64,000 bases of DNA from an uncultured virus (IMG/VR IMGVR_UViG_3300032038_008756) (taxonomy: Duplodnaviria; Heunggongvirae; Uroviricota; Caudoviricetes). Positions 11,609 to 62,240 of the stretch are shown piece by piece. Within the stretch, counting starts at the first letter, position 1. Each line of letters begins with the position of its first letter. The position numbers and the translations under genes were made by a program. The DNA is taken from the IMG/VR virus record IMGVR_UViG_3300032038_008756. One strand, 5' to 3'. The notes under the pieces are model-generated. The model was given only the letters and a program-made list of their open reading frames with translations, had not been told where the DNA came from and did not search any database.

Positions 11609-11700
11609 TAATACTTCTTCTAGAATTACCTTTTTATCTATTAATCACATTATGTTAATACCTTCGTAGTAAAACACTTTTATTTTCCTTATAATTGATT

Positions 11701-12723
11701 ATGAAACAATTTAAAAGATATTGTCATATTGAAAATTCTTATCAAATAGAATTTTTAGGTAAAATTAAAGAAGTCGTGCCTGCTACTGAGAATTGGGTAT
11801 GTCAAGAAAAGATTCATGGCACTAATTCATCATTTGTAGTAGGAAGAGGAGAAGATGGTCAAGTTGAAATTGATTTTGCTAAAAAGAGTGGTATTTTAGC
11901 CGATAATGAAAATTTCTATAACTGGCAACTTCTCATGAATGAAAAGAAGAATGCAGTCATCACTCTATTTGAGTTACTAGAAAAAGATTATGACTGTAGT
12001 GCAGGTGTTAGTATTTTTGGAGAATTCTTTGGTGGCGGATATGAAGGTCAGCCTGTAGTAAAAGGAATACAAAAAATACAAAAGGGTATTCAGTATTGTC
12101 CTGGACATGAGTTTTATGGATTTGATATTTATATTCAAGGATATGGATATTTGCCACCTGAAAAAAGTTCAGACTACTTCAAACAGGCTGGATTATTCTA
12201 TGCTGAAACACTCTTTAAGGGGACACTAGAAGATTGTCTTAAGTATCCGAATACATTCCCTAGTACAATTCCACATCGACTTGGACTTCCTGAAATTGAA
12301 GGAAATATGTGTGAAGGCGTTGTAATTAAACCTTGTACACCACAGTATTTCAATAATGGAGAACGTATTCTCATAAAGAATAAAAATCCAAAATTTCAAG
12401 AAATTATTAAAGGGGATAAGAAACCTAAAGTGGAAAAACAATATAGTGAAACTTATAATAACCTAGCAGCTATTATTCCGGATTATATTAACGAGAATAG
12501 ACTGGTTTCATGTCGATCACACTTAGGAGAAACTACACTTCCTAAAGATTTTGGAAAGATTCTTGGAGAGTATAGCAAAGATGTAATCTTAGAGGCTTTA
12601 GAAGAAACAGAAGCTAATAAAGCCGTGTATGAAACTTTAGAGAAAGAAGAGCAGAAGGCTTTACGAAACCTGATTAATAAGCTCTGTGCAGAAAATATTA
12701 AACACGTATATATGGGAGCTTAG
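11701..12723 (+). CDS. RNA ligase, Rnl2 family
   Basis: nucleotidyltransferase motifs EKIHGTN, GEFFGG, FYGFDI, EGVVIKP, IKNKN. Confidence 0.9.
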   Translation: MKQFKRYCHIENSYQIEFLGKIKEVVPATENWVCQEKIHGTNSSFVVGRGEDGQVEIDFAKKSGILADNENFYNWQLLMNEKKNAVITLFELLEKDYDCSAGVSIFGEFFGGGYEGQPVVKGIQKIQKGIQYCPGHEFYGFDIYIQGYGYLPPEKSSDYFKQAGLFYAETLFKGTLEDCLKYPNTFPSTIPHRLGLPEIEGNMCEGVVIKPCTPQYFNNGERILIKNKNPKFQEIIKGDKKPKVEKQYSETYNNLAAIIPDYINENRLVSCRSHLGETTLPKDFGKILGEYSKDVILEALEETEANKAVYETLEKEEQKALRNLINKLCAENIKHVYMGA

Positions 12724-12738
12724 TACTCCCTTTCTTTT

Positions 12739-13749
12739 ATGACTATCTTAGAACTATTTAATCCAGATAAACCAATAGAAGAAATTAATAATTATCTTTT
12801 AAAAACTGGAGTTGATGATGTAGATAATCTCTTAACGGAACAGGATTTTCTAAAAAACTTAAAACTGATTAAGGATAATAATATCATAGACATTAATTTT
12901 TGTGGACATATTAATGGAATTCCAAAAACTAAGAGATTAATCTCAATTATAATTTATTATGAATTAATACCTGGTGGGACATTAATTAAGCTTGATATTC
13001 CTTTAGAAAATAAACGAGGGAATAAAATTCAAATCAATGGTCGTATTACAAATGATATATCTAAAATCTATAAATATCCATCAACTGTCTCATTAGGGTA
13101 TAATATACAGCCAGTTAGGCTTGAGGACATTGAATATCCTGCAGGTCTTAAGGAAAATCCCTGGGGCCTTAGCAGAAAGCAGGTTGAAGATGCAGCTAGA
13201 ACTTTTCGGAAAAGTATAGATCCTTATGTTCATGATTTGGAAGACCCTAAATTTCTATTAAATATTGCGGATTGGATAACGGAATTAAATCTCTTTAATA
13301 GAGATGATAAACATTCTTATCTTCATGGATATGGACAAACAGGAAGTTACGTAATCGAACCTCTAGTTAGAGCTGTCTTAGGACCAGAATATACTAAAGA
13401 AGACGCAGCACTTCTTAGCTTGAATTGTGTCAGATCACCTTTTGAATATCATCAATTTGGTAAATTTATTCCTAAGATACTTACTTTTGATCCAAAAATT
13501 AAAGATATTAATTTAAGGAGACATGAAATTTTTGTCTGGCAAAATAGAAAAGCAACCGATGAAGAAAAGAAAGAAGTAGCTACTAAGTGGATTAAAGCTG
13601 TTAAGAAAGCAATAGCTATAAATATAAAACGACATGATCTTAAAGAAGAACTTGAATTAATCCTGAAAAAAGAAAAACAAAAACTTCTGAAAGAAAGAGG
13701 ATATCAACCGGATTTCTTAAAAGATATACCATTAATTAAATTATTATGA
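12739..13749 (+). CDS. hypothetical protein between Rnl2 and RtcB
   Basis: 336 aa ORF, stop overlaps the rtcB start. Confidence 0.75.
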   Translation: MTILELFNPDKPIEEINNYLLKTGVDDVDNLLTEQDFLKNLKLIKDNNIIDINFCGHINGIPKTKRLISIIIYYELIPGGTLIKLDIPLENKRGNKIQINGRITNDISKIYKYPSTVSLGYNIQPVRLEDIEYPAGLKENPWGLSRKQVEDAARTFRKSIDPYVHDLEDPKFLLNIADWITELNLFNRDDKHSYLHGYGQTGSYVIEPLVRAVLGPEYTKEDAALLSLNCVRSPFEYHQFGKFIPKILTFDPKIKDINLRRHEIFVWQNRKATDEEKKEVATKWIKAVKKAIAINIKRHDLKEELELILKKEKQKLLKERGYQPDFLKDIPLIKLL

Positions 13750-15044
13750 TACAACTAGAAGGAAAGTATAGTAAAGATTGTAAAATTTGGACTGATAATA
13801 TAGACCAAAATGCCTTACAGCAAGTTTATGATCTAATTAATAGTGCAGAATTCACTAATGTTCCTGTTCGTGTTATGCCAGATGTCTGTGCAGGTGAGAC
13901 TACTATAGTGGGTCTAACATATCCCCTTATAAGTGGTTTTATAGCGCCATCTCACATAGGATCAGACGCAGGATGTTCTGTAAGTCTAGAATTCTTTAGT
14001 GGAACAGTGGAAAATGAAATGCTACCTCTTATTGAACATAGACTAAAACAAGAGATTCCTAGTGGCAAAGAGATATGCGCAAGTAGACAGTTTGACGTAA
14101 AAGAATTTCTAAAATTTTTAAGAACAGAATTACAAAGAATATATCAAAGTTCTAATGGTTTAATCATATTACCTGAGTTTAATCGAGAATCAGACCTAGA
14201 AGAATGGCTGGGGGATATTGGAGAAGACTTGGGGATATTCTATAAAAGTATAGGATCAATCGGATCCGGCAATCACTATATTGAATTAGACTTATGTGAG
14301 GATGGTAGATTAGCATTTACTGTACATACAGGTTCTAGAAGTCTTGGCTTAAAAGTCTTTAAAAAATGGCAAAGATTAGCAGATTCTACAAAAATATCTC
14401 AGTCTGGAGAAAAGAAAATCAGAAAAGAAAATAAAGGCAAACCACAAGAAGAGATTGAACGACTTATAATAGAATATAAAAAGACTCTTCACCCAGGATA
14501 TCTAACAGGAGAAAATCTAAGAGGATACTTAACAGATATTGCTATTTGTCAAATCTATGCTAAGTGGAATCATAAAGTAATTCTAGAAAAAGCAGCAAAA
14601 ATAATAGCCAAAGTTGGAGGTGGCAAAGTAGACGAAATAATAACTACAACACATAATTATATTGACTTTGATACTGTTGATGGAATTCCAATGGTTAGAA
14701 AAGGAAGTGTAAGAGCTAATGAAGGTGAAGTTTTCTTGCTGCCTTTTAATATGAGAGATGGTCTAGCAATATGTAAGGGAAAAGGAAATGTTGATTGGAA
14801 CTGCTCTTGCTCACATGGATCTGGTAGAAAATACTCTAGATCTCAAGCTAAGAAAAGAATAACACTAAAAGAATTTGAAAAAAGTATGAAAGGTATCTGC
14901 AGCACTAGCGTATGTCAAGGAACTATTGATGAAAGTCCTATGGCTTACAAAGATACAGAAGAAATCATTGAGTTAATTAAAGACACTGCAGATATTGAAT
15001 ATAGATTAAAACCACTGCTTAATATTAAAGGCGGAGGAGAATAA
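13746..15044 (+). CDS. rtcB: RtcB-family RNA ligase
   Basis: MPD, GSDAGC, GSGNHYIE, HTGSR, HNY, RKG, SHGSGR, DESPMAYKD. Confidence 0.92.
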   Translation: MIQLEGKYSKDCKIWTDNIDQNALQQVYDLINSAEFTNVPVRVMPDVCAGETTIVGLTYPLISGFIAPSHIGSDAGCSVSLEFFSGTVENEMLPLIEHRLKQEIPSGKEICASRQFDVKEFLKFLRTELQRIYQSSNGLIILPEFNRESDLEEWLGDIGEDLGIFYKSIGSIGSGNHYIELDLCEDGRLAFTVHTGSRSLGLKVFKKWQRLADSTKISQSGEKKIRKENKGKPQEEIERLIIEYKKTLHPGYLTGENLRGYLTDIAICQIYAKWNHKVILEKAAKIIAKVGGGKVDEIITTTHNYIDFDTVDGIPMVRKGSVRANEGEVFLLPFNMRDGLAICKGKGNVDWNCSCSHGSGRKYSRSQAKKRITLKEFEKSMKGICSTSVCQGTIDESPMAYKDTEEIIELIKDTADIEYRLKPLLNIKGGGE

Positions 15045-15060
15045 AATTAGAAAGGAGAAA

Positions 15061-17109
15061 TTAATCTCCCTTCTTTTTTATTATTTCGAAACCAGCATCT
15101 TTCTTTCCTGTTAATTTATTCGATATTCTGCATGTTCTGATTTTAAAATATTGTTCTAAATCTGTAGCTTTTGGGGTTTTAGTATAGCCAACTTTTTGAT
15201 AAATCTGGCCAATCTTATTTTTAATATTAACCTTTGTATCTTTATCTCCTGGTTTAAATTGACAAAAGATTTCTCTCTCTAGGTCAGAATAATTTTCTTG
15301 TTGATTAACTATGGATCTATATTCTTCTTCTAACCTAGACTTTGCATAACTATTCGCCTTTATTCTTTCCGGACCCAAGACAACAATATAATTTCTATAC
15401 TCCATTGGTATAAGATTAATTAATACATGAAATTCAGCCGAATTAAAAATAGCTTCTTGTTCACATATGTACTTCATTTTATCTACAAATGTTGTATATT
15501 TATTTTCAAATTCAGACACAGCTCTTTCAAGTCTATCTTTATTTGCTGAACAATTATATTGGTCTAGGGCATTGAATACTGTAAATCTATCTCTGTAATC
15601 ATATTTCTGTATCTCAAAAGTCCTAAGTTCTGCTACCATCATAAGATTGTTTAAAACAGGAACTTTATTGCTTCCAGCATGTCTATTAACTGCTACATAA
15701 TTACTGCTATAATTATATGCCTTTGCAAGATTCTCATACTCTTCAGCAATTGAGTCTTTAGAATCATCAGCCACAGAATTATAGGCAAGTAAGAGATCAT
15801 TAGTTCTCTTCATCTTTTTATTCATGTAAGCCTTAAAATCTTCTTTACTATTTTCATTGTATTTTAAGGTTATATAAAGCTCCGCACTATTCTTCCATGG
15901 GTTTTCCTCTAAACGTTGCCTTCCTAGAATCTGAGGTAGGTCCATACTAATATCCACTGATAAACAATCAACGTTAGCATTACTAAAGATATAAGATTTA
16001 GCACAGGTACTATAAAAATCAGCTCCTAAATATACCGTTCTAGTGCAAAAGGTAAACATCTTATGCTGTTCTCCCTGTTTGGGTACTTTACCAATATAAG
16101 TTATTCCATCCTTTACCTTTCCACCAAATGCTTTTCTAATAGCAGTTTCGTTTTCTTTTGTTCTACTAACTAGGATATTACATTGATCTATCGTTAGATT
16201 GCTAGCCTTTACTGCTTTCGCAATATCCTTGACACTATTAACATAAATAACTGCTTCTTTAGACTGAATTTCCTTTAAATTTCCCTGATTATCTCGATAC
16301 CGATAAACATCAAAAATACCCTCCAAATACTTTTGAATAATCTTTTTAATATTCATCTGTATTGTATTTTTCTTTCCACAATATTTAACATCGAGTTGAG
16401 GTTTGATTACTCTCCCTGGATCAGAGCTAGTCCAATCCATTTCATAATAAGGTAGATCTTTAAAATCCTCTAACATGTCCAAGTACTCTTTTAGCATAGG
16501 AGTCGCTGAAACATAACAGACTTTTTGCAATTTCTTAATCTGTTCCATAAATTCTAGTTCTGTATCTGACTTGAATTTAGCGTCAGTGAAGATGCTCTGA
16601 AACTCATCAATAACCACATAAAACTTCTCTATATCCTCTCCCAATGCCTCTTTAACATGACGAAAAGAATCATAAGTTACTAAGATTTTACATGGTTTTG
16701 AATTCTTAAATGGATTTTCCTGACATGATTTCCAATATGCTTTAATTTCATTCTTAAGTTGAATAACTTTAGCACTTTTCTCTTCATCAGTAAACCCTAG
16801 TTTCTCCATTACAGAAGCTACTCCTTTTGGCTTATCCGTAAGGTCTTTTTCAAAATATACACTTTTCTCAATATCATTCCTAACATAATAAACATTTCCC
16901 TGATGTTGGTCCTCCTTATTTTCTAATAGGATTTTTCTTGGACTACATAGAATTATATTCATATCATTTCTAATACAATACTCCGTATATCCACAACCAG
17001 TGATACTCTTGTTTAAGATGTGAGGAAAATTGTAATCTTTTAGGGTATATTCTACCCAATCTGATATATACCTAATACCACTAGGTACTATTAACTTTTT
17101 TATTTCCAT
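15061..17109 (-). CDS. SF2 helicase-like protein (paralog A)
   Basis: TGCGYT (Walker A position, no Lys), DEFQS, SATP, TVYLGADF, QILGRQR. Confidence 0.8.
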   Translation of the reverse strand: MEIKKLIVPSGIRYISDWVEYTLKDYNFPHILNKSITGCGYTEYCIRNDMNIILCSPRKILLENKEDQHQGNVYYVRNDIEKSVYFEKDLTDKPKGVASVMEKLGFTDEEKSAKVIQLKNEIKAYWKSCQENPFKNSKPCKILVTYDSFRHVKEALGEDIEKFYVVIDEFQSIFTDAKFKSDTELEFMEQIKKLQKVCYVSATPMLKEYLDMLEDFKDLPYYEMDWTSSDPGRVIKPQLDVKYCGKKNTIQMNIKKIIQKYLEGIFDVYRYRDNQGNLKEIQSKEAVIYVNSVKDIAKAVKASNLTIDQCNILVSRTKENETAIRKAFGGKVKDGITYIGKVPKQGEQHKMFTFCTRTVYLGADFYSTCAKSYIFSNANVDCLSVDISMDLPQILGRQRLEENPWKNSAELYITLKYNENSKEDFKAYMNKKMKRTNDLLLAYNSVADDSKDSIAEEYENLAKAYNYSSNYVAVNRHAGSNKVPVLNNLMMVAELRTFEIQKYDYRDRFTVFNALDQYNCSANKDRLERAVSEFENKYTTFVDKMKYICEQEAIFNSAEFHVLINLIPMEYRNYIVVLGPERIKANSYAKSRLEEEYRSIVNQQENYSDLEREIFCQFKPGDKDTKVNIKNKIGQIYQKVGYTKTPKATDLEQYFKIRTCRISNKLTGKKDAGFEIIKKKGD

Positions 17110-17334
17110 AATATATATATTTATTAGTTTAATTAAATTAAAAATGAAGAATAGATGAGTATATTTTTCTATTGTTCTCTTCTATTCTTTTCATACATAA
17201 GGAATTGAGAGTATTCTCAGTCCACTTTTTTTAACATTTTTCATAGGAATTCTAATAATGCTCAAAAAGATGCACTTTTACTAAAAAATAGGTACTTATC
17301 AAAATCCCTATCACTCTACTTCTTAAACTATAGA

Positions 17335-17371
17335 TTATTCCCTCACTCCACTTCGTTCCGTTCAGTCAATA
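17335..17371 (-). repeat. 37-bp motif upstream of helicase paralog A
   Basis: reverse complement matches 48721-48757 at 34 of 37 positions. Confidence 0.85.
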
Positions 17372-17639
17372 ATAAAGAAGTATACACATCAGATATCTTA
17401 TTCAATGCGTAGCTGCCAAAGCGTTAAATGAAGAGGGTTAAACGAGGGACTGCATCTGTCCCGAGTACCGATGAGTAGCTTTGGAATGCTTCTATACACA
17501 GAGCCGGGGTGGGAGCGTTAAGTGGAATGAGGAATGAAGTGACGAATGGAACAAGCGAGTGGCGGATGGAATCCGGGCAGGCCGGATTAACAAAAGATAT
17601 TAGAAACTCTCAACGAAACAAAAAAAATAGAGAAGGATT

Positions 17640-18236
17640 TTACCCTCTCTTCTTTTCCAATTCAATTATGTATGAATTAGTTTCAGTTTTTCCAGCCTTA
17701 AGCTCTTCTAATTCTTTCATCATTTTTTCATATGATGGATAGTTTTTATGTTTAGAAGTGTAAGATTCATAGAATTTTATTGTATTCTGTAGTTGTTCAT
17801 TAGTCCATAGATACCCTTTTATGATGTATATATCACCAACTTTTACTGCAATACACTTAGAATAGGTTATATGTCCATTTTCCTTTGATAATTGCGGAAA
17901 ATATCCAAATACTCTTTCTTCAATAGAATCTCCAAGTTTAAAGTCTATCATCCTATGAAATAACTGAAGTACTATTTGAAGATACATTACCTGTTCATTG
18001 TTTTTTATTGCTCCGTACTTAAACCAGTACAAAAAGGCATTAAAATCATGATACATTCTTTTTAGAACAACATAATACGGATTCTTATTTTCACCAACAT
18101 CATATCTTATTTCCCATAACATCTCTCCCATCTTTTTAAAGAGATCATATATGTCATTATTATATATTGGATCGAAGTTATTCCAGTAAGGATGTTGTTT
18201 AATGGTATCGTGTATTTCTCTAATTGCTATTTTCAT
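17640..18236 (-). CDS. hypothetical protein
   Basis: 198 aa ORF ending in a terminator-like hairpin. Confidence 0.7.
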   Translation of the reverse strand: MKIAIREIHDTIKQHPYWNNFDPIYNNDIYDLFKKMGEMLWEIRYDVGENKNPYYVVLKRMYHDFNAFLYWFKYGAIKNNEQVMYLQIVLQLFHRMIDFKLGDSIEERVFGYFPQLSKENGHITYSKCIAVKVGDIYIIKGYLWTNEQLQNTIKFYESYTSKHKNYPSYEKMMKELEELKAGKTETNSYIIELEKKRG

Positions 18237-24592: not shown

Positions 24593-24702
24593 ATTTTTTT
24601 ATTAAAAGTTGTTTATATTTTTGATCGATGCACGCCACTATTCACTCCGAACATAGTTCTCGTTCATTTGTGGAATTGTGCTTAGCGATAATAGTTGAAG
24701 GG

Positions 24703-25206
24703 TTAAAGTGCAAAAAACGCCCTAACTCGACAGAAAGCATCCGTATTGAACTTAGTGGCGTCGTACACGAGACCGCCGTACGTACTCACGGTCCTAGCAG
24801 TATCAGAAGAGGACCCAGAACTAGACCAACACCAGTATGCATCACCATTATAGGTACAAATGTGGTCTGCATCAACCCCCTTTTCTCTAAGACTATCTAC
24901 AGTTTTATCAATTTCTTCATGATATGACCAAGCTCTCATTAATTCCTCCTGACTTGGCATATACCACCCATTTCCCTTTTCTTTAAAGTATTTATCTTCA
25001 TCATTCCAAGATCCATCTCCATGTCTTTCAAGCTTTAGAGACATTATCTTAGCAGGAGTACCATCACATTTTAGTTCTACGATCAAACCTTTATTTTTGC
25101 CGTCATCGTAATAGTCTCCTATATTATAATCATAATTATTTGTTATTTTTACAGGTGAATTTTTCTGTTTTTCTTTCCACCAATATTTTGTAAATATTCT
25201 TATCAT
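24703..25206 (-). CDS. DUF1566/C-type-lectin-like protein, probable DGR target
   Basis: GWYMPSQEEL, YWCWSSS, terminal RVRAFFAL; GC-rich 3' end with many NNC codons. Confidence 0.7.
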   Translation of the reverse strand: MIRIFTKYWWKEKQKNSPVKITNNYDYNIGDYYDDGKNKGLIVELKCDGTPAKIMSLKLERHGDGSWNDEDKYFKEKGNGWYMPSQEELMRAWSYHEEIDKTVDSLREKGVDADHICTYNGDAYWCWSSSGSSSDTARTVSTYGGLVYDATKFNTDAFCRVRAFFAL

Positions 25207-35597: not shown

Positions 35598-36941
35598 ATG
35601 AGTAAAATTAAAAAATTTGATTCAACTGACCAGTATCAAAAATATCGTAATACTGATGGTTGGGCATATCCGGCTGTTAATATAGTAAGTAATGGTATAG
35701 AAACACAAATGCACTATAATAATGAGCTGAGGATGAGATGGAGTACTACTGATGCTACTATAGTTCCTACTTTTTCAGGCGATGTTAGTTTAGCTGATTT
35801 TAAAACTTGGGTAGATAATGCTTCTTATCCATGTGAAATTAAGAAAGATGGTACTGACTTTGCTTATATTAAAAGATCATCTGGTTCTAATGTTGCAGAT
35901 TGGACTCTTAGAAGTGATGATAGTGCTAGCCATTATAATACTTCTGATAAAACTGATTATCTCCAAATGACTGAAATAGAGAATGTTAATGTAGGTCTTT
36001 TTGAGAATACAGTAGAACATTGGCAGGAGGTACGTTTTAATTTTGATAAAGGATGTCCAGAAGGTTTCCATAAGTGGTTTGCTCACCCATATTGGAATGC
36101 ATCTAGAGGAAGGTATACTAAGCTAATTGGACGATATAATAGTACACCTGCAGGAACAAATACATCAGATACTTCTGCTGGTATAAACTGTGCTTTTGGT
36201 CTATCTCTTGGTGGTACTAAGTACGATAATTATACTCTAGGTAACTGGACTGCAAATCTTCTCTTAGCTGCTACAAAAGCTACAAATGCTAATCTTTTAG
36301 AGGAAACTTATTGGGAACATGTAGTACTCTCTTACATATTTAGTGCATATTATGAAACATTTAATCATCAAAGTATATTCCGTGGACATGCCGGTGATTA
36401 CAATACTGCTGAAACTCCTAGCAATCCAACTGGTTCTGGTGCAGGTGCTGGATTAAATGGACATACTGATAGCTTATTAACACCTCATGGGACAAAAGTT
36501 TCTAATCCAAGTACTACTGATGGTGGATATAGATTTATGCATATTGAGAATGCAATTCACGGTCAACAGTTTCTTTGGGGAGCTGGATGGACTGGAAATG
36601 ATGGTAAGTATTATATGACTTATGATGATATTAAAGCTAATGCCTCTACTTCCCTTACTGAGTCTAATGCAGATGTAGTAGGAACTTATTCAACAAGATT
36701 AAGTAACTCCTATTTTGGGAATGCTGATCTTTGGGGTGTTCCAACAAATACGAGCGGTGGTAGTTCTTCTACTCGTTACTGTGATGCTGCTTGGTCCGGT
36801 ACGGGGTCTGACTATTTAGCTTATCTTGGTGGTCAATCGCAAACCATTACTGCTGCTGGTGGCTTTAATCGGCGCTTCCAGGAAGACGACGTAATTTTCA
36901 CCACCTGGTATCGTCGTGGTCGCTCTACTATGAATAGATGA
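35598..36941 (+). CDS. DGR-type target protein copy 1 (putative receptor-binding/tail protein, CLec-like C-terminus)
   Basis: YRFMHIENAIHG..W and LGG..GGF..W..RGR tail; hypervariable 3' end versus paralogs. Confidence 0.85.
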   Translation: MSKIKKFDSTDQYQKYRNTDGWAYPAVNIVSNGIETQMHYNNELRMRWSTTDATIVPTFSGDVSLADFKTWVDNASYPCEIKKDGTDFAYIKRSSGSNVADWTLRSDDSASHYNTSDKTDYLQMTEIENVNVGLFENTVEHWQEVRFNFDKGCPEGFHKWFAHPYWNASRGRYTKLIGRYNSTPAGTNTSDTSAGINCAFGLSLGGTKYDNYTLGNWTANLLLAATKATNANLLEETYWEHVVLSYIFSAYYETFNHQSIFRGHAGDYNTAETPSNPTGSGAGAGLNGHTDSLLTPHGTKVSNPSTTDGGYRFMHIENAIHGQQFLWGAGWTGNDGKYYMTYDDIKANASTSLTESNADVVGTYSTRLSNSYFGNADLWGVPTNTSGGSSSTRYCDAAWSGTGSDYLAYLGGQSQTITAAGGFNRRFQEDDVIFTTWYRRGRSTMNR

Positions 36942-37110
36942 TCCTGGACTTGAAGAGGACAGAAGTAAATTAATTGTACTTCAGAAACTCTCTAAATTCT
37001 TATATATGTAATGTAAAGAGAAAATAATTAAGAACAATCCTACCGTACACTGATTATAATTCTTTTTACATTCTTTTTTATCAACGAAAAAGGTTCATCT
37101 CTACGGCTTT

Positions 37111-37227
37111 TCCTTATTTTATCATCGCAAGATCGATAATAGTTTTTAATACCAATGGTGGTAACTCGAACAATGGGTTTGCTCATTGGTGGATTTGCTC
37201 AATTCTTCCTCAACACCAATACTGATT
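37111..37227 (+). other. decayed DGR template repeat TR1
   Basis: noncoding ggtggtaactcgaacaatggg...tttgct...ttcttcctcaac...caatactgat, homologous to the VRs, with a 41-bp insertion and an internal deletion versus TR2. Confidence 0.7.
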
Positions 37228-37419
37228 AAATTATAATTTATTTTAAACTTAGTAAAAAAAATAAAAAAGTAAAAGGATATGAATCTTGCAGCAAAATCTA
37301 GCAAATAAACTTAGGAAGCAATAAAAAAAATAGTAGAGTAAGTAAGCCCTTACACATCAACAAGTGGATGCTCATGTGGGGGATCAACGAATGAAAAATT
37401 CATACAATAACTAAAGAAA

Positions 37420-38760
37420 ATGAGTAAAATTAAAAAATTTGATTCAACTGACCAGTATCAAAAATATCGCGATACTGACGGTTGGGCATATCCAGCTATT
37501 AATGTAATAAGTAATGGTATAGAAACACAAACACATTATAATAATGAGCTGAGGATGAGATGGAGTACTACTGATGCTACTATAGTTCCTACTTTTTCAG
37601 GCGATATTAGTTTAGCTGATTTTAAAACTTGGGTAGATAATGCTTCTTACCCGTGTGAAATTAAAAAAGATGGTACTGATTTTGCTTATATTAAAAGATC
37701 AACTGGATCTAATGTTGCGGATTGGACTCTTAGAAGTGATGATAGTAACAGTCATTATAATACTTCTGATAAAACTAATTATCTCCAAATGACTGAAATA
37801 GAGAATATTAATGTAGGTCTTTTTGAGAATACAGCAGAGCATTGGCAAGAAGTACGCTTTAATTTTGATAAAGGTTGTCCAGAAGGTTTTCATAAGTGGT
37901 TTGCTCACCCATATTGGAATGAAGAACGCGGGTGTTATACTAAGCTTATTGGACGATATAATAGTACACCTGCAGGAACAAATACATCAGATACTGCTGC
38001 TGGTATAAATTGTGCTTTTGGTCTATCTCAGGGTGGTACTAAGAGCAATAATTATACTCTAGGTTTCTGGTCTGCAAATACACTCTTAGCTGCTACAAAA
38101 GCTACGAATGAGAATCTTTTAGAGGAAACTTATTGGGAACATGTAGTACTCTCTTACATATTTAGTGCATATTATGAAACATTTAATCATCAGAGTATAT
38201 TCTATGGACATGCCACTGATTACAATACTGCTGAAACTCCTAGCAATCCAACTGGTTCTGGTGCAGGAGCTGGATTAAATGGACATACTGATAGCTTATT
38301 AACACCTCATGGGACAAAAGTTTCTAATCCAAGTTCTACTGATGGTGGATATAGGTTTATGCACATTGAGAATGCTATTCATGGTCAGCAGTGGATTTGG
38401 GGAGCTGGATGGGTTGGAAATAGTGGCAAGTATTATATGACTTATGATGATATTAAAGCTAATGAATCTGCTACCCTCACTGAGTCTAATGCAGATGTAG
38501 TGGGAACTTATCCAACAACATTAAGTGGCCAGTATTTTGGAAATGCTGATCTTTGGTGTGTTCCGACTAATAAGAGTGGAGGTAGTTCTTCTACTCGTTA
38601 TTGTGATGATGGTTGGTCCGCTGCGGGGACTGGTCGTGTAGCTTACCTTGGTGGTTCCGCGAACAGCGGGGCGGGCTGTGGCGGCTTTGCTCGGAGCTTC
38701 TACTACGACGCTACTATGGACCTCTGGGGTCATCGTGGTCGCCCTACTATGAATAGATGA
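37420..38760 (+). CDS. DGR-type target protein copy 2
   Basis: paralog of copy 1; VR about 38647-38748 rich in NNC codons. Confidence 0.85.
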   Translation: MSKIKKFDSTDQYQKYRDTDGWAYPAINVISNGIETQTHYNNELRMRWSTTDATIVPTFSGDISLADFKTWVDNASYPCEIKKDGTDFAYIKRSTGSNVADWTLRSDDSNSHYNTSDKTNYLQMTEIENINVGLFENTAEHWQEVRFNFDKGCPEGFHKWFAHPYWNEERGCYTKLIGRYNSTPAGTNTSDTAAGINCAFGLSQGGTKSNNYTLGFWSANTLLAATKATNENLLEETYWEHVVLSYIFSAYYETFNHQSIFYGHATDYNTAETPSNPTGSGAGAGLNGHTDSLLTPHGTKVSNPSSTDGGYRFMHIENAIHGQQWIWGAGWVGNSGKYYMTYDDIKANESATLTESNADVVGTYPTTLSGQYFGNADLWCVPTNKSGGSSSTRYCDDGWSAAGTGRVAYLGGSANSGAGCGGFARSFYYDATMDLWGHRGRPTMNR

Positions 38761-38908
38761 TCCTAGACTTGAAGAGGACAGAAGTGAATTAATTGTACTA
38801 CGGAAACTCCCTAAATTCTTATATATGTAATGTAAAGAGAAAATAATTAAGAACAATCCTACCGTACCCTGATTATAATTCTCTTTACATTCTTTTTTAT
38901 CAACGAAA

Positions 38909-40252
38909 ATGAATAATAATATTAGAAAATTTGATTCAACTACTCAGTATCAAAAATATCGTGATACTGATGGTTGGGCATATCCAGCTGTTAATGTAAT
39001 AAGTAATGGTATAGAAATACAAACACATTATAATAACGAGCTAGGAATGAGATGGAGTACTACTGATACTAAGATAGTTCCTACTTTTTTAGGTGAAGTT
39101 AGCTTATCTGATTTTAAAACTTGGGTAGATAATGCTTCTTATCCATGTGAAATTAAGAAAGATGGTACTGACTTTGCTTATATTAAAAGATCAACTGGTT
39201 CTAATATTGCAGATTGGACTCTTAGAAGTGATGATAGTAACAGTCATTATAATACCTCTGATAAAACTGATTATCTTCAAATGACTGAAATAGAGAATGT
39301 TAATGTAGGTCTTTTTGAGAATACAGTAGAACATTGGCAGGAAGTACGTTTTAATTTTGATAAAGGTTGTCCAGAAGGTTTTCATAAGTGGTTTGCTCAT
39401 CCATATTGGAACGAAGAACGTGGATGTTATACAAAACTTATTGGTAGATATAATAGTACCCCTGCTGGAACAAAGACATCAAATACTGCTGCAGGTATAA
39501 ATTGTGCCTTTGGTCTATCTCTAGGTGGTACTAAGTACAATAATTATACCCTAGGTAACTGGTCTGCAAATACCCTCTTAGCAGCTACAAAAGCTACAAA
39601 TGCTAATCTTTTAGAGGAAACTTATTGGGAACATGTAGTACTCTCTTACATATTTAGTGCATATTATGAAACATTTAATCATCAGAGTATATTCTATGGA
39701 CATGCCACTGATTACAATATTGCTGAAAATCCTAACAGTCCAACCGGTGCAGGCGCAGGTGCTGGATTAAATGGACATACTGATAGCTTATTAACACCCC
39801 ATGGGACAACAGTTTCTAATCCAAGTACTACTGATGGTGGATATAGATTTATGCATATTGAAAACGCAATTCACGGTCAGCAGTGGATTTGGGGAGCTGG
39901 ATGGGTTGGAAATAATGGTAAGTATTATATGACTTATGATGATATTAAAGCTAATGCATCTGCTACCCTCACTAAGTCTAATGCAGATGTAATAGGAACT
40001 TATTCAACGACATTAAATGGCCAGTATTTTGGAACTGCTGATCTTTGGTGTGTTCCTACTAATGCGAGTGGTGGTAGTTCTTCTACTCGTTATTGTGACG
40101 CTGCTTGGTCCAATAAGGGGACTGGTCGCGTAGCTTGGCTGGGTGAGGACGCGGGCGGTGGTGGTTGTAATGGTGGTTTTGCTCGGGTCTTCCTCTACGC
40201 TGCTGGTCCCGCCTACTGGGTTTGGCGTGGGCGCTCTACTATGAATAGATGA
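38909..40252 (+). CDS. DGR-type target protein copy 3
   Basis: paralog; VR about 40139-40240 colinear with TR2. Confidence 0.85.
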   Translation: MNNNIRKFDSTTQYQKYRDTDGWAYPAVNVISNGIEIQTHYNNELGMRWSTTDTKIVPTFLGEVSLSDFKTWVDNASYPCEIKKDGTDFAYIKRSTGSNIADWTLRSDDSNSHYNTSDKTDYLQMTEIENVNVGLFENTVEHWQEVRFNFDKGCPEGFHKWFAHPYWNEERGCYTKLIGRYNSTPAGTKTSNTAAGINCAFGLSLGGTKYNNYTLGNWSANTLLAATKATNANLLEETYWEHVVLSYIFSAYYETFNHQSIFYGHATDYNIAENPNSPTGAGAGAGLNGHTDSLLTPHGTTVSNPSTTDGGYRFMHIENAIHGQQWIWGAGWVGNNGKYYMTYDDIKANASATLTKSNADVIGTYSTTLNGQYFGTADLWCVPTNASGGSSSTRYCDAAWSNKGTGRVAWLGEDAGGGGCNGGFARVFLYAAGPAYWVWRGRSTMNR

Positions 40253-40420
40253 TCCTAGACTTGAAGAGGACAGAAGTGAATTAATTGTACTACGGAAACT
40301 CCCTAAATTCTTATATATGTAATGTAAAGAGAAAATAATTAAGAACAATCCTACCGTACCCTGATTATAATTCTCTTTACATTCTTTTTTATCAACGAAA
40401 AAGGTTCATCTCTACGGCTT

Positions 40421-40525
40421 TTCCTTGGTGATAACTTGAACAACAGGTCTGCTGCTGGTGGTTTTGCTAGACTCTTCTTCCTCAACGCTGGTCCCTCCTA
40501 CTGGAATAGGCATGGGCGCAATACT
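40421..40525 (+). other. DGR template repeat TR2 (partly adenine-depleted)
   Basis: ungapped codon-for-codon alignment to VRs 2-4, with AAC/AAT at variable positions. Confidence 0.82.
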
Positions 40526-40707
40526 GATTAAATTATAATTTATTTTAAACTTAGTGAAAGGATATGAATCTTGCAGCAAAATCTAGCAAATAAACTTAGG
40601 AAGCAATAAAAAAAATAGTAGAGTAAGTAAGCCCTTACACATCAACAAGTGGATGCTCATGTGGGGGATCAACGAATGAAAAATTCATACAATAATAATT
40701 AAAGAGA

Positions 40708-42045
40708 ATGAGTAATTATATTAAAAAATTTGATTCAACTACTCAGTATCAAAAATATCGTGATACTGACGGTTGGGAATATCCTGCTATTAATATAGTA
40801 AGTAATGGCATAGAAACACAAACACATTATAATAATGAGCTGAGAATGAGGTGGAGTACTACTGATTCTACTATAGTTCCTACTTTTTCGGGTGAAGTTA
40901 GTTTATCTGATTTTAAAACCTGGGTAGATAATGCCTCTTATCCATGTGAAATTAAAAAAGATGGTACTGATTTTGCTTATATTAAAAGATCAACTGGCTC
41001 TAATGTTGCAGATTGGACTCTTAGAGATGATGATAGTAACAGTCATTATAATACTTCTGATAAAACTGATTATCTCCAAATGACTGAAATAGAGAATATT
41101 AATGTAGGTCTTTTTGAGAATACAGCAGAAGGTTGGCAAGAAGTACGTTTTAATTTTGATAAAGGATGCCCAGAGGGTTTTCATAAGTGGTTTGCTCATC
41201 CATATTGGAACGAAGAGCGTGGATGTTATACAAAACTTATTGGACGATATAATAGTACACCCGCAGGAACAAGTACATCAGATACTGCTGCTGGTATAAA
41301 CTGTGCTTTTGGTCTATCTCTGGGTGGTACTAAGTACGATAATTATACTCTAGGTTTCTGGTCTGCAGATACACTCTTTTACGCTACACAAGCTACCAAT
41401 CTTTTAGAGGAAACTTATTGGGAACATGTAGTACTTTCTTACATATTTAGTGCATATTATGGAACATTTGATCATCAGAGTATATTCCGTGGACATGCTA
41501 CTGATTTCAATACTGCTGAGACTCCTAGCAATCCAACTGGTTCTGGTGCAGGAGCTGGATTAAATGGACATACTGATAGTTTATTAACACCTCACGGGAC
41601 AAAAGTTTCTAAGCCTAGTACTACTAATGGTGGATATAGGTTTATGCATATTGAGAATGCAATTCATGGTCAGCAGTGGATTTGGGGAGCTGGATGGACT
41701 GGAAATGATGGTAAGTATTATATGACCTATGATGATATTACAGCTAATGCCTCTACTACCCTTACTGAGTCCGATGCAGATGTAGTGGGAACTTATCCAA
41801 AAACATCAAGTGGTAACTATTTTGGGAATGCTGATCTCTGGTGTGTTCCAACAAATACAAGCGGTGGTAGTTCCTCTACCCGTTATTGTGACAGTGTTCT
41901 TAGCAGGACAGGGGATGGTCATGTAGCTTATCTTGGTGGTGACGCGCTTAGCGCGAATGGCTGTGGCGGCTTTTCTCGGGACTTCCGCAATGACGCTGCT
42001 CACTCCTACCGGTATCGGCGTGGTCGCCCTACTATGAATAGATGA
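40708..42045 (+). CDS. DGR-type target protein copy 4
   Basis: paralog; VR about 41932-42033. Confidence 0.85.
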   Translation: MSNYIKKFDSTTQYQKYRDTDGWEYPAINIVSNGIETQTHYNNELRMRWSTTDSTIVPTFSGEVSLSDFKTWVDNASYPCEIKKDGTDFAYIKRSTGSNVADWTLRDDDSNSHYNTSDKTDYLQMTEIENINVGLFENTAEGWQEVRFNFDKGCPEGFHKWFAHPYWNEERGCYTKLIGRYNSTPAGTSTSDTAAGINCAFGLSLGGTKYDNYTLGFWSADTLFYATQATNLLEETYWEHVVLSYIFSAYYGTFDHQSIFRGHATDFNTAETPSNPTGSGAGAGLNGHTDSLLTPHGTKVSKPSTTNGGYRFMHIENAIHGQQWIWGAGWTGNDGKYYMTYDDITANASTTLTESDADVVGTYPKTSSGNYFGNADLWCVPTNTSGGSSSTRYCDSVLSRTGDGHVAYLGGDALSANGCGGFSRDFRNDAAHSYRYRRGRPTMNR

Positions 42046-47585: not shown

Positions 47586-48263
47586 TTATTCTAGTTCTTT
47601 CCACTTTTCTTCTGGATAAGTATTATGTAACTTATCTAACCACCACTTCGTCTTTATTTTTACCTTTGGCATTCTCTGACCCTTCATTAATGTTGAACGT
47701 CTTGCTACAACTCCTTCTTTTACCTCAGGATATTTACACTCAAGTTTGGTCCAATCATTTTCTTGAATTTCTTTTATAAAATCTTGATTTAAAGGACCAC
47801 GATAAATTAAAGTTGGAGTCGGAATTCTAGGGTCTTTACAAAAGAGATCATAAAATGGTTGTGGCTCAATATATCCTTTCTTCTGCATAAAAAGATCAAT
47901 AAGAGCCAAAGTCATCTCATCTCCCTCTTGATGAAATCCAGCAAAAGAATTTGGACCATACCATTCAAAGAAAAAATCAATCTCCTTTACTCCATTAAAT
48001 AATCGATGCTTACCTCTATTTTGAGCAATAATTTCTTTCAAAGGATCTTCTAGATAAGTCTTAAAATATTGAACAGCAGAGCCAAAAACTTCACTAGTTT
48101 CATCTACTAAGCACTTTCTGCTATGAAAACCAGAGAATACTTTTTGATTAGGGTTATACTTTACTCCAAAATTCTGTCCATCTAATTTATTAAAAGCCCA
48201 GACCTGTTCCCCTAAAAGAGTACCATTATCCTGGATTCTTATTATACTATCATACTTTCTCAT
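47586..48263 (-). CDS. ATP-dependent RNA ligase-like nucleotidyltransferase
   Basis: NKLDGQN, FEWYG, LIDL, EGVVAR, VKIKT. Confidence 0.8.
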   Translation of the reverse strand: MRKYDSIIRIQDNGTLLGEQVWAFNKLDGQNFGVKYNPNQKVFSGFHSRKCLVDETSEVFGSAVQYFKTYLEDPLKEIIAQNRGKHRLFNGVKEIDFFFEWYGPNSFAGFHQEGDEMTLALIDLFMQKKGYIEPQPFYDLFCKDPRIPTPTLIYRGPLNQDFIKEIQENDWTKLECKYPEVKEGVVARRSTLMKGQRMPKVKIKTKWWLDKLHNTYPEEKWKELE

Positions 48264-48540: not shown

Positions 48541-48720
48541 ACATTTTTAAGGATTTCATTGAGAGGACCTGAAGTGCAAGGGTAAAATTTTCCTATTTTT
48601 TCGCGCCTAGGTGACCTCTGAGTTTAGATTCCACCCCTAATACGACCTCAACAAACTCGGTCGTTGTCGGGGTTTCATCTTTAATTAAGCTCTTGTATAA
48701 GACCTAGGAGTAAATTGTGA

Positions 48721-48757
48721 TATTGACCGAACGAAACGAAGTGAAGTGAGGGAATAA
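48721..48757 (+). repeat. 37-bp motif upstream of helicase paralog B
   Basis: tattgaccgaacgaaacgaagtgaagtgagggaataa, 34/37 match to the reverse complement of 17335-17371. Confidence 0.85.
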
Positions 48758-48903
48758 GATTTTCCTATTTTCCTATTTTCTAACACTTATATTAGTAAAA
48801 ACCCAAAATTTGCGCAACTTTTAGGAAAATTTTGCTCTTATTTTCATCTATAAGCCTTATAAAAGAAGGGTAAACCTAGGCTAAAATTTAAAAGAAATAT
48901 AAC

Positions 48904-50925
48904 ATGAATATAACAAAAATTAACGTCCCACCTGGTATTAGGTATATATCGGATTGGAAAGAATTTAAATTACCTAACTTTCCACACATACTAGACAAAC
49001 AAATTCCTGGTTGTGGGTTCACGGAGTGGAGCCTCACTAATAATGAAGACACTGTATTATGTTCTCCTAGAAAAATACTTCTTCAAAATAAGAATGATCA
49101 ACACCTAGGAGACGTATATTATTTGGTTAATGACTATGAACAGATTATAGATAGTGGGAAGGATTTGACTAAAATTAATAAGAAGATAAAGAAGGAAGAG
49201 ATAGATGACGATGAGATTAAAAAACTTAAAGCAGAATTTTATTTAAGACAAGAATACTCGCTTTCTTCTTATATTTCTTTTAGAAAATCAACAAATCAAC
49301 CTTGTAAAATCTTAGTAACCTATGATAGTTTTCACATTATCAAAAGTATATTAGGTAATAAAGGTATATTACAAGATTTTAGAATCATAGTTGATGAGTT
49401 TCAATCAATATTTGTTGATTCACGCTTCAAGTCTAGTACTGAACTAGATTTTGTTAATCAATTACAGGACTTACAGAGGGTATGTTTCGTCTCAGCAACA
49501 CCAATGATGGAAGAGTATTTAGTGCAGATTGAAAATTTTAAAAATTTGCCTTATTATAGTCTTGATTGGAATAAACTACAGGAAGGTAGAGTTATAAAAC
49601 CAGATTTAATTGTAAGAAGTAGTAAGTCTGTTTTTACTACAGCTAAAAGTATTATTGAGTCTTATAAGTCCGGTCAATATGAAAAAGCTTATCGTATTGG
49701 TTCTAATGGTAAAGCGGAATGTGTAGAAAGTAAAGAAGCAGTGTTTTATGTCAATTCCGTTAATAATATTCTCTCTATTATAAAGAGAAATTCTCTTAGT
49801 CCAGATGAATGTAATATTCTTTGTGCTAATACATCAGAGAATATAACAAAGATAAAGAAGAAATTAGGTAAAAACTTTTTTATTGGTAAAGTACCTCTTA
49901 AAGGAGAACAACACAAGACATTTACTTTTTGCACTAGAACTGTATACCTTGGAGCTGATTTTTACTCCACCAACGCAAGAAGTTTTATTATTAGTGATGC
50001 AAACATAGATACTCTTGCTGTTGATATTTCCCTAGACTTGCCACAGATTTTAGGTAGACAGAGATTAATAGAAAACCCGTGGAAGAATAAAGCCAATTTC
50101 TATTATAAGCCGACAGCTCAAGCAAAACTTACTTCAAAAGATAAGTTTGATGCTATAATAAAAAAGAAAGAAAATAGAACCCAGGACTTACTGAATGCTT
50201 ATCAAGATACTAGAGCGAGCTCTAAAGATTCATTAGTTGATACATATGATACCGTAGCTAAACTTTTAAACTATAGAGATGATTATGTAGCTGTAAATAA
50301 AAGATATGACTCAGTCTTACAGACTTGGATACAAACTCCAGTAAGGAATAATTTAGTTATTATTGCGGAGAGAAGAGCTTTTGACATACAACAGATAGAT
50401 TACAAAGACCGTTTTAGTGTCTTTAATACGATAGAACAGAATTCTATTTTGTCTGGAGTTGATATTATTGCAAAACAATTCCTAGAAAAGTATGAAAGGC
50501 AAAATAATCTATATGAAAAATTAAAATTTTTATGTACTTGTGGTATTTCAGATAATATCATCAAAACATTTATTCTCCCAAATATAACAGAGAAACATTT
50601 TAGTGAATATTATCTTATTATAGGGCCAGATAGGATACGTTCTCTTGGGTACAACATTAATAGATTAAATAAAGAGTTAAACATAGTCACATTCAATCAG
50701 TTAACTCTTAGTGATGAGATAGTTAAATTATTTTCAGTTGGTGATAAGTTGCCAAAAAATAAAATAAAAGAAATTTTATTAAATCTTTATACGCTACTGA
50801 AATATGATAAAATTCCAAAAGCAACAGATCTAGAACAGTGGTTTGAATTAAGGGCGATAAAAGTAAAGGATAGTTCTGGCAAATGGGTTCATGGTTTTGA
50901 GATAATAAAAAAGAAAGGAGATTAA
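48904..50925 (+). CDS. SF2 helicase-like protein (paralog B)
   Basis: PGCGFT, DEFQS, SATP, TVYLGADF, QILGRQR; same GFEIIKKKGD terminus as paralog A. Confidence 0.8.
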   Translation: MNITKINVPPGIRYISDWKEFKLPNFPHILDKQIPGCGFTEWSLTNNEDTVLCSPRKILLQNKNDQHLGDVYYLVNDYEQIIDSGKDLTKINKKIKKEEIDDDEIKKLKAEFYLRQEYSLSSYISFRKSTNQPCKILVTYDSFHIIKSILGNKGILQDFRIIVDEFQSIFVDSRFKSSTELDFVNQLQDLQRVCFVSATPMMEEYLVQIENFKNLPYYSLDWNKLQEGRVIKPDLIVRSSKSVFTTAKSIIESYKSGQYEKAYRIGSNGKAECVESKEAVFYVNSVNNILSIIKRNSLSPDECNILCANTSENITKIKKKLGKNFFIGKVPLKGEQHKTFTFCTRTVYLGADFYSTNARSFIISDANIDTLAVDISLDLPQILGRQRLIENPWKNKANFYYKPTAQAKLTSKDKFDAIIKKKENRTQDLLNAYQDTRASSKDSLVDTYDTVAKLLNYRDDYVAVNKRYDSVLQTWIQTPVRNNLVIIAERRAFDIQQIDYKDRFSVFNTIEQNSILSGVDIIAKQFLEKYERQNNLYEKLKFLCTCGISDNIIKTFILPNITEKHFSEYYLIIGPDRIRSLGYNINRLNKELNIVTFNQLTLSDEIVKLFSVGDKLPKNKIKEILLNLYTLLKYDKIPKATDLEQWFELRAIKVKDSSGKWVHGFEIIKKKGD

Positions 50926-50957
50926 TTTCTCCCTTCTTTCTTTTCCTTATTTATGAT

Positions 50958-62036: not shown

Positions 62037-62191
62037 AAAAAAAAGAAAAAGGGAAGGGCGCGATATGCCCTTTATTGTCCTGACTGTGGGCGTTAATAGT
62101 TGCGTAGTCCTTTCTTAAGATTTAAATGAGTTATATTAGGCGCGTGAACTGCCGCTTACTCATACTACGGCATGTGCCGCTTCCCTTCTTT
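62037..62191 (-). ncRNA. candidate structured small RNA
   Basis: GC-rich ORF-less island with its own CCTTATATGTG motif, nested stems and a U-tract end. Confidence 0.5.
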
Positions 62192-62240
62192 CACATATAA
62201 GGTTTTCAATACCTTTTCAGCCGTAACCCTTATATATGTT

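Follow-up and report, generated by a model that had tools for sequence, protein, structure and literature searches.

A conserved, possibly RNA-forming element precedes an unnamed, lysine-less SF2-fold protein gene in two cassettes of a gut phage genome

The uncultured Caudoviricetes virus IMGVR_UViG_3300032038_008756 (IMG/VR) carries two diverged copies, A and B, of a cassette in which a GC-rich, hairpin-dense element precedes the gene for a helicase-like protein of superfamily 2 (SF2). The stretch analyzed, here called the window, is 64,000 nucleotides long, has a G+C content of ~32%, and appears to be part of a large ruminant-gut phage. Each copy is an insulated cassette: the terminator of the upstream gene, the structured element ending in purine boxes of the GAACGAAGTG type (the 37-mer), an AT-rich spacer with a seemingly ordinary promoter, the gene for a lysine-less SF2-fold protein with a winged-helix-like end, and a terminator over the stop codon. 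We tentatively favor a structured, probably RNA, element with a cognate lysine-less SF2/winged-helix protein. The element would act as a folded single strand, most probably RNA, made in the gene direction from its own start upstream of the gene promoter, and would be recognized (boxes and/or hairpins) by the C-terminal domain of the cassette's protein, while the RecA-like core would clamp it without classical ATP-driven unwinding. Element and protein would then form a cognate RNA-protein pair, in the manner of a DEAD-box protein and the hairpin it is specific for.

The two genes are paralogs in opposite orientation, as the first-pass annotation of the window had proposed, and their products are 46% identical over 696 columns (full length). 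The shared 3' end that it described is also there: 46 nt (15049-15094 and 50892-50937) match at 91%, and both stop codons are overlapped by a hairpin that scores as an intrinsic terminator. The copy A terminator, a 10-pair stem followed by a T-rich tail, is kept in G001_A and G001_B, two genes of a second IMG/VR contig (G001; 118,859 bp, estimated 32% complete, three family genes). Read in the gene direction, copy A consists of a terminator, a ~200-nt GC-rich core, TTGAATAAGAT, the 37-mer, ~130 nt of AT-rich DNA, CCTTATGTATG, 93 nt, and the ATG; copy B has the same order of parts, but its GC-rich core is of unrelated sequence. The unit around copy A had first been drawn at 15045..17600; it is real, but the conserved block is slightly wider, 15049-17633.

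Both contigs hold the cassette as a block. By BLASTN, window positions 15049-17633 correspond to G001 13316-15874 and 48593-50989 to G001 46903-44486, with sharp edges that run from just past one terminator to just past the next, and in a TBLASTN search of G001 with window open reading frames (ORFs) of at least 90 aa, just the two helicase-like genes and a GC-rich piece at 24.6 kb match. Terminator, element, promoter, ORF and terminator are kept together in G001 amid unrelated genes, which bears out the idea of a self-contained unit of protein plus cis site, and the helicase-like gene is the lone ORF in 15049-17633 and in 48593-50989, in line with the earlier remark that no transposase is recognizable. 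A third contig, L088, has the A-type unit again, behind a different neighbor. The sole other stretch common to the window and G001, besides the cassettes and short promoter-like motifs, is the 24.6-25.2 kb region, where GC-rich DNA at 24638-24836, inside an ORF at 24703-25206(-), is 77% identical to G001 47877-48084 and 49203-49349; this island was rejected as a relative of the cassette since it lies within an ORF and is of unrelated sequence. In the window as in G001, 31-34 kb separate A from B; an even spacing of units was nevertheless rejected, as the third G001 copy lies 58 kb further on and the copies of another contig (G002) are 86 and 65 kb apart.

Within this block the element is conserved above the protein. 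Copy A is 62% identical to one G001 family gene and copy B 62-63% to another, no protein segment exceeds 77% identity, and the whole cassette has ~69% DNA identity, whereas identity between window and G001 reaches 89.4% across 302 nt of the A element and 89.9% across 168 nt of the B element (B ortholog L082). A detached copy of the A core in G001 (L083 1047-1250, with the element copy reaching 1290; ~101.9 kb) is 94.6% identical to the window core; placed 3' of the third family gene, it runs in the opposite orientation and has decayed boxes. Across the four A-type copies on three contigs, the core varies at only ~10 columns.

The relation of the two copies was examined in a quick maximum-likelihood tree of 49 members with a midpoint root. 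Copy A groups with G001_A (support 99) and copy B with G001_B (98), and the two pairs fall on opposite sides of the root; other contigs also have one member on each side (L004/L009 and L005/L010). Since each copy has an ortholog of its own and the two are so placed in the tree, the duplication is old with both lineages retained, and the copies are ancient paralogs rather than products of a recent burst. This goes against the first-pass suggestion that the unit spreads within the genome, at least recently. What the first pass named as refuting its idea, copies fixed and syntenic in all relatives with the 37-mer also common elsewhere, was not observed: the copies are non-syntenic between contigs and the 37-mer is confined to family genes. 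A selfish mobile cassette, moron-like or borne by homing nucleases, in which the high element identity reflects recent transfer rather than function, seems to us very unlikely. It would account for the sharp edges and the lack of synteny in G001 and L088, for a core that is multi-copy and nearly identical, and for the 3' end of family genes as a landing site of T5orf172, HNH, and IS607-type resolvase plus TnpB genes. The ORFs, however, are only 62% (between contigs) or 46% (between copies) identical, against 89-95% for the element, so transfer of the whole unit cannot be recent; the tree has deep retained paralogs, there is no transposase, inspection by eye alone revealed no terminal inverted repeats or target duplication at the cassette ends, and no homing nuclease stands beside copy A or copy B. 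Relatives of two neighbor genes were sought in IMG/VR as a search for empty sites, and none were found.

The purine-rich 37-mers of A and B are identical at 34 of 37 positions (92%), and a 24-nt core of the motif has just two sites in the window, on both strands and with up to five mismatches; the shared motif of the first reading is therefore confirmed, with no third window site. Its flanks, said not to align, mostly do not, but A and B share TTG(A/T)ATAAGA ~30 nt upstream of the 37-mer. The hairpin arms named for the copy A leader, atccgg/ccggat (17587-17571), ccaaagc/gctttgg (17484-17416) and gggac/gtccc (17462-17446), are in the sequence, and all form in the minimum-energy fold. A CCTTAT element stands at both copies as described, but the element is not peculiar to the cassettes: the window has 22 CCTTATnnWTG sites, of which 16 precede an ORF start by at most 150 nt, usually standing 12-14 nt ahead of the ATG. 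Examples are 7599, 23314, 46751(-), 50945, and 56423; a T-rich run often precedes the motif, which is also found in G001. It is a generic, phage-wide gene-start or promoter signal, and resembles the Bacteroidetes -7 promoter box (consensus TAnnTTTG).

Beyond the window, the 37-mer contains the family-wide box GAACGAAGTG. The pattern AACG(N1-3)GTGRR, taken from the 37-mer, was searched in 84 related loci (588 kb, both strands; many loci are near-duplicates), and each of the 18 matches falls in the 800 nt upstream of a family gene, 14 on the sense and four on the antisense strand, representing nine distinct sense and four distinct antisense contexts. In 35 non-redundant loci, TGAATAAGA occurs 13 times, nine of them sense-upstream (5.7% of the searched space) and in members of both major branches. 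ATTTTGCT, the motif behind the promoter-like stretch of copy B, is present in 13-14 of 35 upstream regions vs 6-9 of 205 background chunks. Because the box occurs family-wide and upstream of family genes, the 37-mer is this genome's version of an old cis motif that goes with the helicase-shaped protein family. In almost every locus G+C content peaks 300-600 nt upstream of the gene, and the nearest upstream ORF of at least 100 aa is never closer than 376 nt. The 5' box TTGAGRR was not enriched (12 of 144 matches in the 5.7% sense-upstream space). A 17-nt 'iteron', RAGTG(N4-7)KGRAAY, had seven window matches vs 2.1 in shuffles (maximum 7) and was set aside as post hoc; an iterated weight matrix for the boxes is circular and serves as illustration only. 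The gaps upstream of distant homologues in phages D'Alembert and Phab24 were rejected as counterparts, being AT-rich with dispersed short repeats and without boxes or GC hairpins.

Plain autoregulation, with the boxes as operators of the gene's promoter, the hairpins as insulating terminators or spacers, and neither an RNA product nor a replication role, would suit several of these features. The CCTTAT box follows the end of the 37-mer at a distance of 133 nt in A and ~99 nt in B, the element has the upstream terminator on one side and the promoter on the other, the protein's tail is winged-helix-like, and same-genome paralogs often share upstream blocks (80-92% over 40-330 nt) at ~60-80% protein identity. 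We nonetheless judge it decidedly unlikely, as it leaves unexplained a 200-nt core conserved above the protein, the detached, oppositely oriented core that follows another gene on its 3' side, and the base-pair covariation seen in relatives.

That covariation was measured in 14 distinct relative elements by RNAalifold and pair counting, with 98.1% of cells paired. Nine of the 38 pairs are changed on both sides, vs 3.9 +/- 1.3 in shuffles (0 of 500 reach 9) and 0-1 in slid controls, and G.U pairs, alternating with C-G, stand at three sense-strand positions in 11-12 of the 14 sequences. Unrelated hairpin inserts replace one another between conserved flanks, and where inserts are related, their differences are compensating. 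A subgroup of distant relatives has additional modules in the element, delimited by long-range complements of 8-10 bp (TGGTTCTT...AAGAACCA; AAGGTTCA...TGAACCTT). Because this covariation comes with sense-strand G.U pairs, the structure is probably single-stranded and probably RNA; together they argue for a folded single strand read in the gene direction, most simply RNA.

The protein belongs to a large family with conserved motifs. Among 8,000 candidates scored, 5,287 proteins reach E <= 0.001; the family has 1,600 representative clusters, and 360 of 380 candidate IMG/VR stretches encode a member, often with 2-4 copies per 100-400 kb contig. In 247 full-length members, motif I reads GCG[FYAML]T in 238 (in short, GCG[FY]T), so that the Walker A lysine is missing family-wide, whereas SF2 motifs II, III, and VI are kept (DEFQ in 212, SATP in 237, and QI[LMIV]GRQR in ~233); copy A has GCGYT, DEFQ, SATP, and QILGRQR. 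An AlphaFold (AF2) model from 23 aligned members (predicted local distance difference test, pLDDT, 79.5; predicted template modeling score, pTM, 0.70) shows a two-RecA SF2 core with at least 500 SF2 matches at E <= 0.001 in Foldseek. The VIA matches for residues 3-515 are eIF4A1 (Z 18.7), Prp2 (18.6), eIF4AIII (18.1), DbpA (17.9), and DinG (16.9); DinG, RIG-I, and BLM fall within ~3 Z units of the top, and these structural matches to the predicted model place the protein in the SF2 superfamily but do not single out a subfamily. The last 163 residues (pLDDT 94.4) are modeled as a helical bundle plus a beta-alpha-alpha-beta-beta unit, and Foldseek found nothing for this C-terminal domain at E <= 0.001.

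By sequence the family has gone without a name. The sole Pfam match is a sub-threshold DEAD/DEAH one (PF00270) for copy A only (13.2 bits vs a cut-off of 26, E 0.073), no Pfam match to Herpes_ori_bp or any replication initiator appears at E up to 1, and no family in PHROGs, NCBIfam, or PADLOC and no entry in a PDB sequence profile search matched the protein. The ESM Atlas has unnamed viral clusters only, with DEAD on 11% of one cluster. Full-text literature searches, together with term look-ups in the main texts of two jumbo-phage papers, found no description of the family or the element; helicase is mentioned only generically in the main text of one survey (PMC11662467), and none of the looked-up terms occurs in that of the other (PMC13037316). 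The family is a large, unnamed one of ruminant and other gut phages, many of 100-400 kb, with both major branches present on several contigs.

Several observations weigh against an RNA element bound by its protein, and temper our preference for it. The covarying modules are absent from the window's own elements, whose lineage (four A-type and two B-type copies) is too alike for covariation. The antisense strand of the A-type element folds better in four of four copies (-75 to -84 vs -55 to -67 kcal/mol), the two strands of the B-type element are equal in folding energy, and a strand call from such energies was judged unreliable; whole-region z-scores are unremarkable (-0.96 sense, -1.41 antisense). 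Rfam 15 gave no match at gathering score in the whole window, chance-level matches only in 17100-17700 (E 1.9-6.3), and nothing at E <= 0.1 for the upstream elements of five relatives; ARAGORN found no tRNA or tmRNA in the window. The DNA in front of the element showed no convincing promoter. As to expression, a bovine gut RNA library holds contigs near-identical to the window, and gene A is covered by contigs of four RNA libraries, each from a different study (e.g. 15954-17155 in X17), while the core is covered by a single 180-nt contig (X18), on the core alone. Three of the four runs have no contig on 17180-17635, which is inconclusive as to absence; RNA contigs give no strand, ends, or level and may include DNA carry-over, so a transcript is neither shown nor excluded by them. 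On the protein side, the structure prediction proposed as a way to find a nuclease or helix-turn-helix domain yielded a winged-helix-like C-terminal unit, but the likeness (last ~70 residues) is weak: RFX-DBD at Z 6.0, root-mean-square deviation (rmsd) 2.8 over 66 residues, and others at Z 4-5.4. Inverted boxes, and nucleases with the same C-terminal domain, fit recognition of DNA at least as well.

Table 1. Parts of the two cassettes, with window positions.
Feature	Position	Strand	Remarks
Upstream gene's terminator (copy A)	17629..17650	-	5' edge of conserved block
A-type GC-rich core, ~200 nt	17383..17585	-	Three hairpins; its pyrimidine-rich arm repeats the purine boxes imperfectly, in inverted form
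Short spacer	17372..17382	-	Towards the core, followed by the TTGAATAAGAT motif (~17396-17406), common family-wide
37-mer of copy A	17335..17371	-	Proximal purine box array (GAACG GAACGAAGTGGAGTGAGGGAATAA)
Gene-start/promoter-like motif CCTTATGTATG	17192..17202	-	Generic in phage; 93 nt before copy A ATG
Copy A ORF	15061..17109	-	682 aa; predicted SF2 two-RecA core ~aa 1-515, helical region, C-terminal winged-helix-like domain ~aa 610-680
Copy A terminator hairpin	15049..15074	-	Overlaps stop codon (GGAGATTAATTTCTCC core); also closes convergent RtcB gene
B-type GC-rich core	48593..48720	+	Sequence unlike A-type; long hairpin (CCACCCC..GGGGT)
37-mer of copy B	48721..48757	+	34/37 match to copy A 37-mer
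Promoter-like stretch of copy B	48830..48866	+	TTTTGCTCTT ... CCTTATAAAAG
Copy B ORF	48904..50925	+	673 aa; architecture as copy A; motif I GCGFT
Copy B terminator hairpin	50917..50932	+	Overlaps stop codon; next gene's start motif directly after

The neighbors of family genes, surveyed in 28 related loci, are very diverse (transporters, gyrase B, AAA+ proteins, an FtsH-like peptidase, a CCA-adding-type enzyme). In eight of the 28, a gene for a T5orf172/MUG113 (GIY-YIG-type) nuclease lies directly downstream, often overlapping the stop codon, and the C-terminal 160 residues of this nuclease are homologous to the helicase-like protein's tail; the window has neither a T5orf172 gene nor a further copy of the C-terminal domain. 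Other genes behind family members include a serine-resolvase and TnpB pair (OrfB_IS605; IS607-type; L038 5341-7003) and an HNH_3 gene (L027 4566-5903), both directly behind, and the 3' side of family genes collects selfish elements. At L006 6148-6425, after a gyrase B/Toprim-like ORF downstream of the family gene, there is a match to a group I intron (40.2 bits against a gathering score of 50, E 4.7e-07). On the other side, the upstream neighbor is divergent in 12 of 28 loci vs 14 strand switches in 96 other adjacent pairs, and distant homologues in cultured phages stand behind 0.9-1.35 kb gaps at divergent points. Family units are often the first in a transcription block, as would suit an origin and a strong independent promoter region alike.

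In the window, PF09414 RNA ligase genes adjoin both copies, and RtcB also adjoins copy A. A T4 Rnl2-like RNA ligase (RNA_ligase plus T4_Rnl2_C), an ORF of 336 aa without assigned function, and RtcB occupy 11695-15044, convergent with copy A; a second ORF with an RNA_ligase domain is found at 47586-48263, divergent from copy B. An RNA ligase as the constant neighbor was rejected: it is also present at L014 and at the phage D'Alembert homologue, but in only one of the 28 related loci.

Divergent gene order, multiple copies, and the shared nuclease tail all enter into another interpretation, in which the cassettes are matched origin-initiator modules, several pairs per large genome, and the boxes are double-stranded DNA sites of the cassette's protein that mark or open a replication start. 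In a variant, a structured purine-rich transcript would prime replication through an R-loop, as at T4 oriF or ColE1. Herpesvirus UL9 and oriS illustrate the arrangement: UL9 has an N-terminal SF2 core and a C-terminal DNA-binding part, and oriS has inverted boxes round a hairpin-capable segment. The family protein, as modeled, and its inverted boxes have the same layout, and boxes in both orientations lie around the core at L014 (-327(-)/-182(+)) and L059 (-566(-)/-429(+)) and as the inverted arms of copy A. The winged-helix-like C-terminal domain, the 2-4 copies per contig, and the divergent neighbors and gaps described above also fit. So do the downstream T5orf172/GIY-YIG nucleases (assigned by Pfam) that carry the same tail: the ICP1 nuclease Odn is a T5orf172 nuclease carrying a borrowed origin-binding domain of PLE RepA (PMC8263062). 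As with PLE RepA-ori and Odn (PMC8263062), the cassette is an exchangeable module of protein and non-coding site, and a T5orf172 nuclease shares the protein's domain; RepA, though, is not SF2, in the family loci that have a nuclease, it follows the gene immediately and within one genome, and both window copies are without it.

Other evidence makes origins rather unlikely in our view. The Walker A lysine is lacking from 238 of 247 members, which makes a motor or melting ATPase doubtful, whereas UL9 is an active ATPase with motif I intact and its boxes surround an AT-rich spacer; here they flank GC-rich hairpins with no easily melted AT-rich spacer, and the protein has neither a Pfam match to a herpes origin-binding protein or replication initiator (E up to 1) nor a PDB sequence match. 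GC skew, which the first-pass annotation offered as a check for an origin, lends no support: in the window and G001 it merely tracks gene direction, and only the copy B element lies at a divergent point, copy A and all three G001 cassettes being away from a switch. Nested long-range pairing with G.U pairs would be unexpected for a duplex DNA site, and the G002 spacing is irregular (86 and 65 kb). It is with considerable doubt that one would picture a large phage genome copied from several starts, each with a matched purine-box element (possibly an RNA primer or R-loop) and a lysine-less SF2/winged-helix protein; if true, it would be a phage counterpart of the matched origin-initiator pairs of archaeal chromosomes.

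For the preferred RNA-protein pair, the closest parallel is DbpA/YxiN, in which the C-terminal domain is specific for hairpin 92 of 23S rRNA. Like DbpA, the family protein has an SF2 core and a C-terminal domain that is predicted to give specificity, and the DbpA-RNA complex is among its best structural matches (7pmq, Z 17.9, rmsd 4.3, 316 residues aligned). It differs from DbpA in lacking the Walker A lysine, in having DEFQ for DEAD and a winged-helix-like rather than RNA recognition motif (RRM)-type tail, in the absence of a significant sequence match (Pfam DEAD E 0.073), and in that the putative target is encoded beside the gene. The elements also resemble the GOLLD and ROOL RNAs as GC-rich, hairpin-dense conserved islands, here in a 32% G+C phage genome and with covariation in relatives; at 170-270 nt they are much shorter than those RNAs, always tied to one protein family, and without an Rfam match at E up to 10 / 0.1. 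Morons are likewise insulated transcription units amid unrelated neighbors in different genomes, but most are lone accessory genes that have no conserved cis element, and they do not form deep paralog families at 2-4 copies per genome.

The window also encodes RNase H, an adenylosuccinate-synthetase-like protein, and an NAD synthetase in addition to the RNA ligases and RtcB. The NAD synthetase gene, at 62172-63998, fits the 'NAD-jumbo phages' of animal guts described in PMC11662467. The adenylosuccinate-synthetase-like gene (50958-52241) directly follows copy B and matches Pfam Adenylsucc_synt; its best PHROG is annotated '2-aminooxy adenylosuccinate synthetase' (PurZ-type), and it may hint at a modified-adenine pathway. 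Four tandem ~447-aa paralogs at 35598-42045 have 5' parts that are 88-95% identical and GC-rich, variable 3' ends, and the differences between the coding copy at 40171-40240 and a non-coding one at 40456-40525 fall mainly where the latter has A. From their sequences, these look like the targets and template of a diversity-generating retroelement; no reverse transcriptase was found among the window ORFs scanned.

The family is unnamed in Pfam, PHROGs, NCBIfam, and PADLOC though it is large and multi-copy in many 100-400 kb gut and rumen phages, and its recognition could aid the annotation of thousands of phage genomes. It brings together an unusual trio: an SF2 core that lacks the Walker A lysine with its other motifs kept, an element conserved above the protein, and boxes confined to family genes. 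On any of the readings, whether an RNA-protein pair, an origin module, or a control circuit, the cassette is a testable cis-trans pair, and it accounts for the clustering of homing nucleases with a borrowed tail behind family genes.

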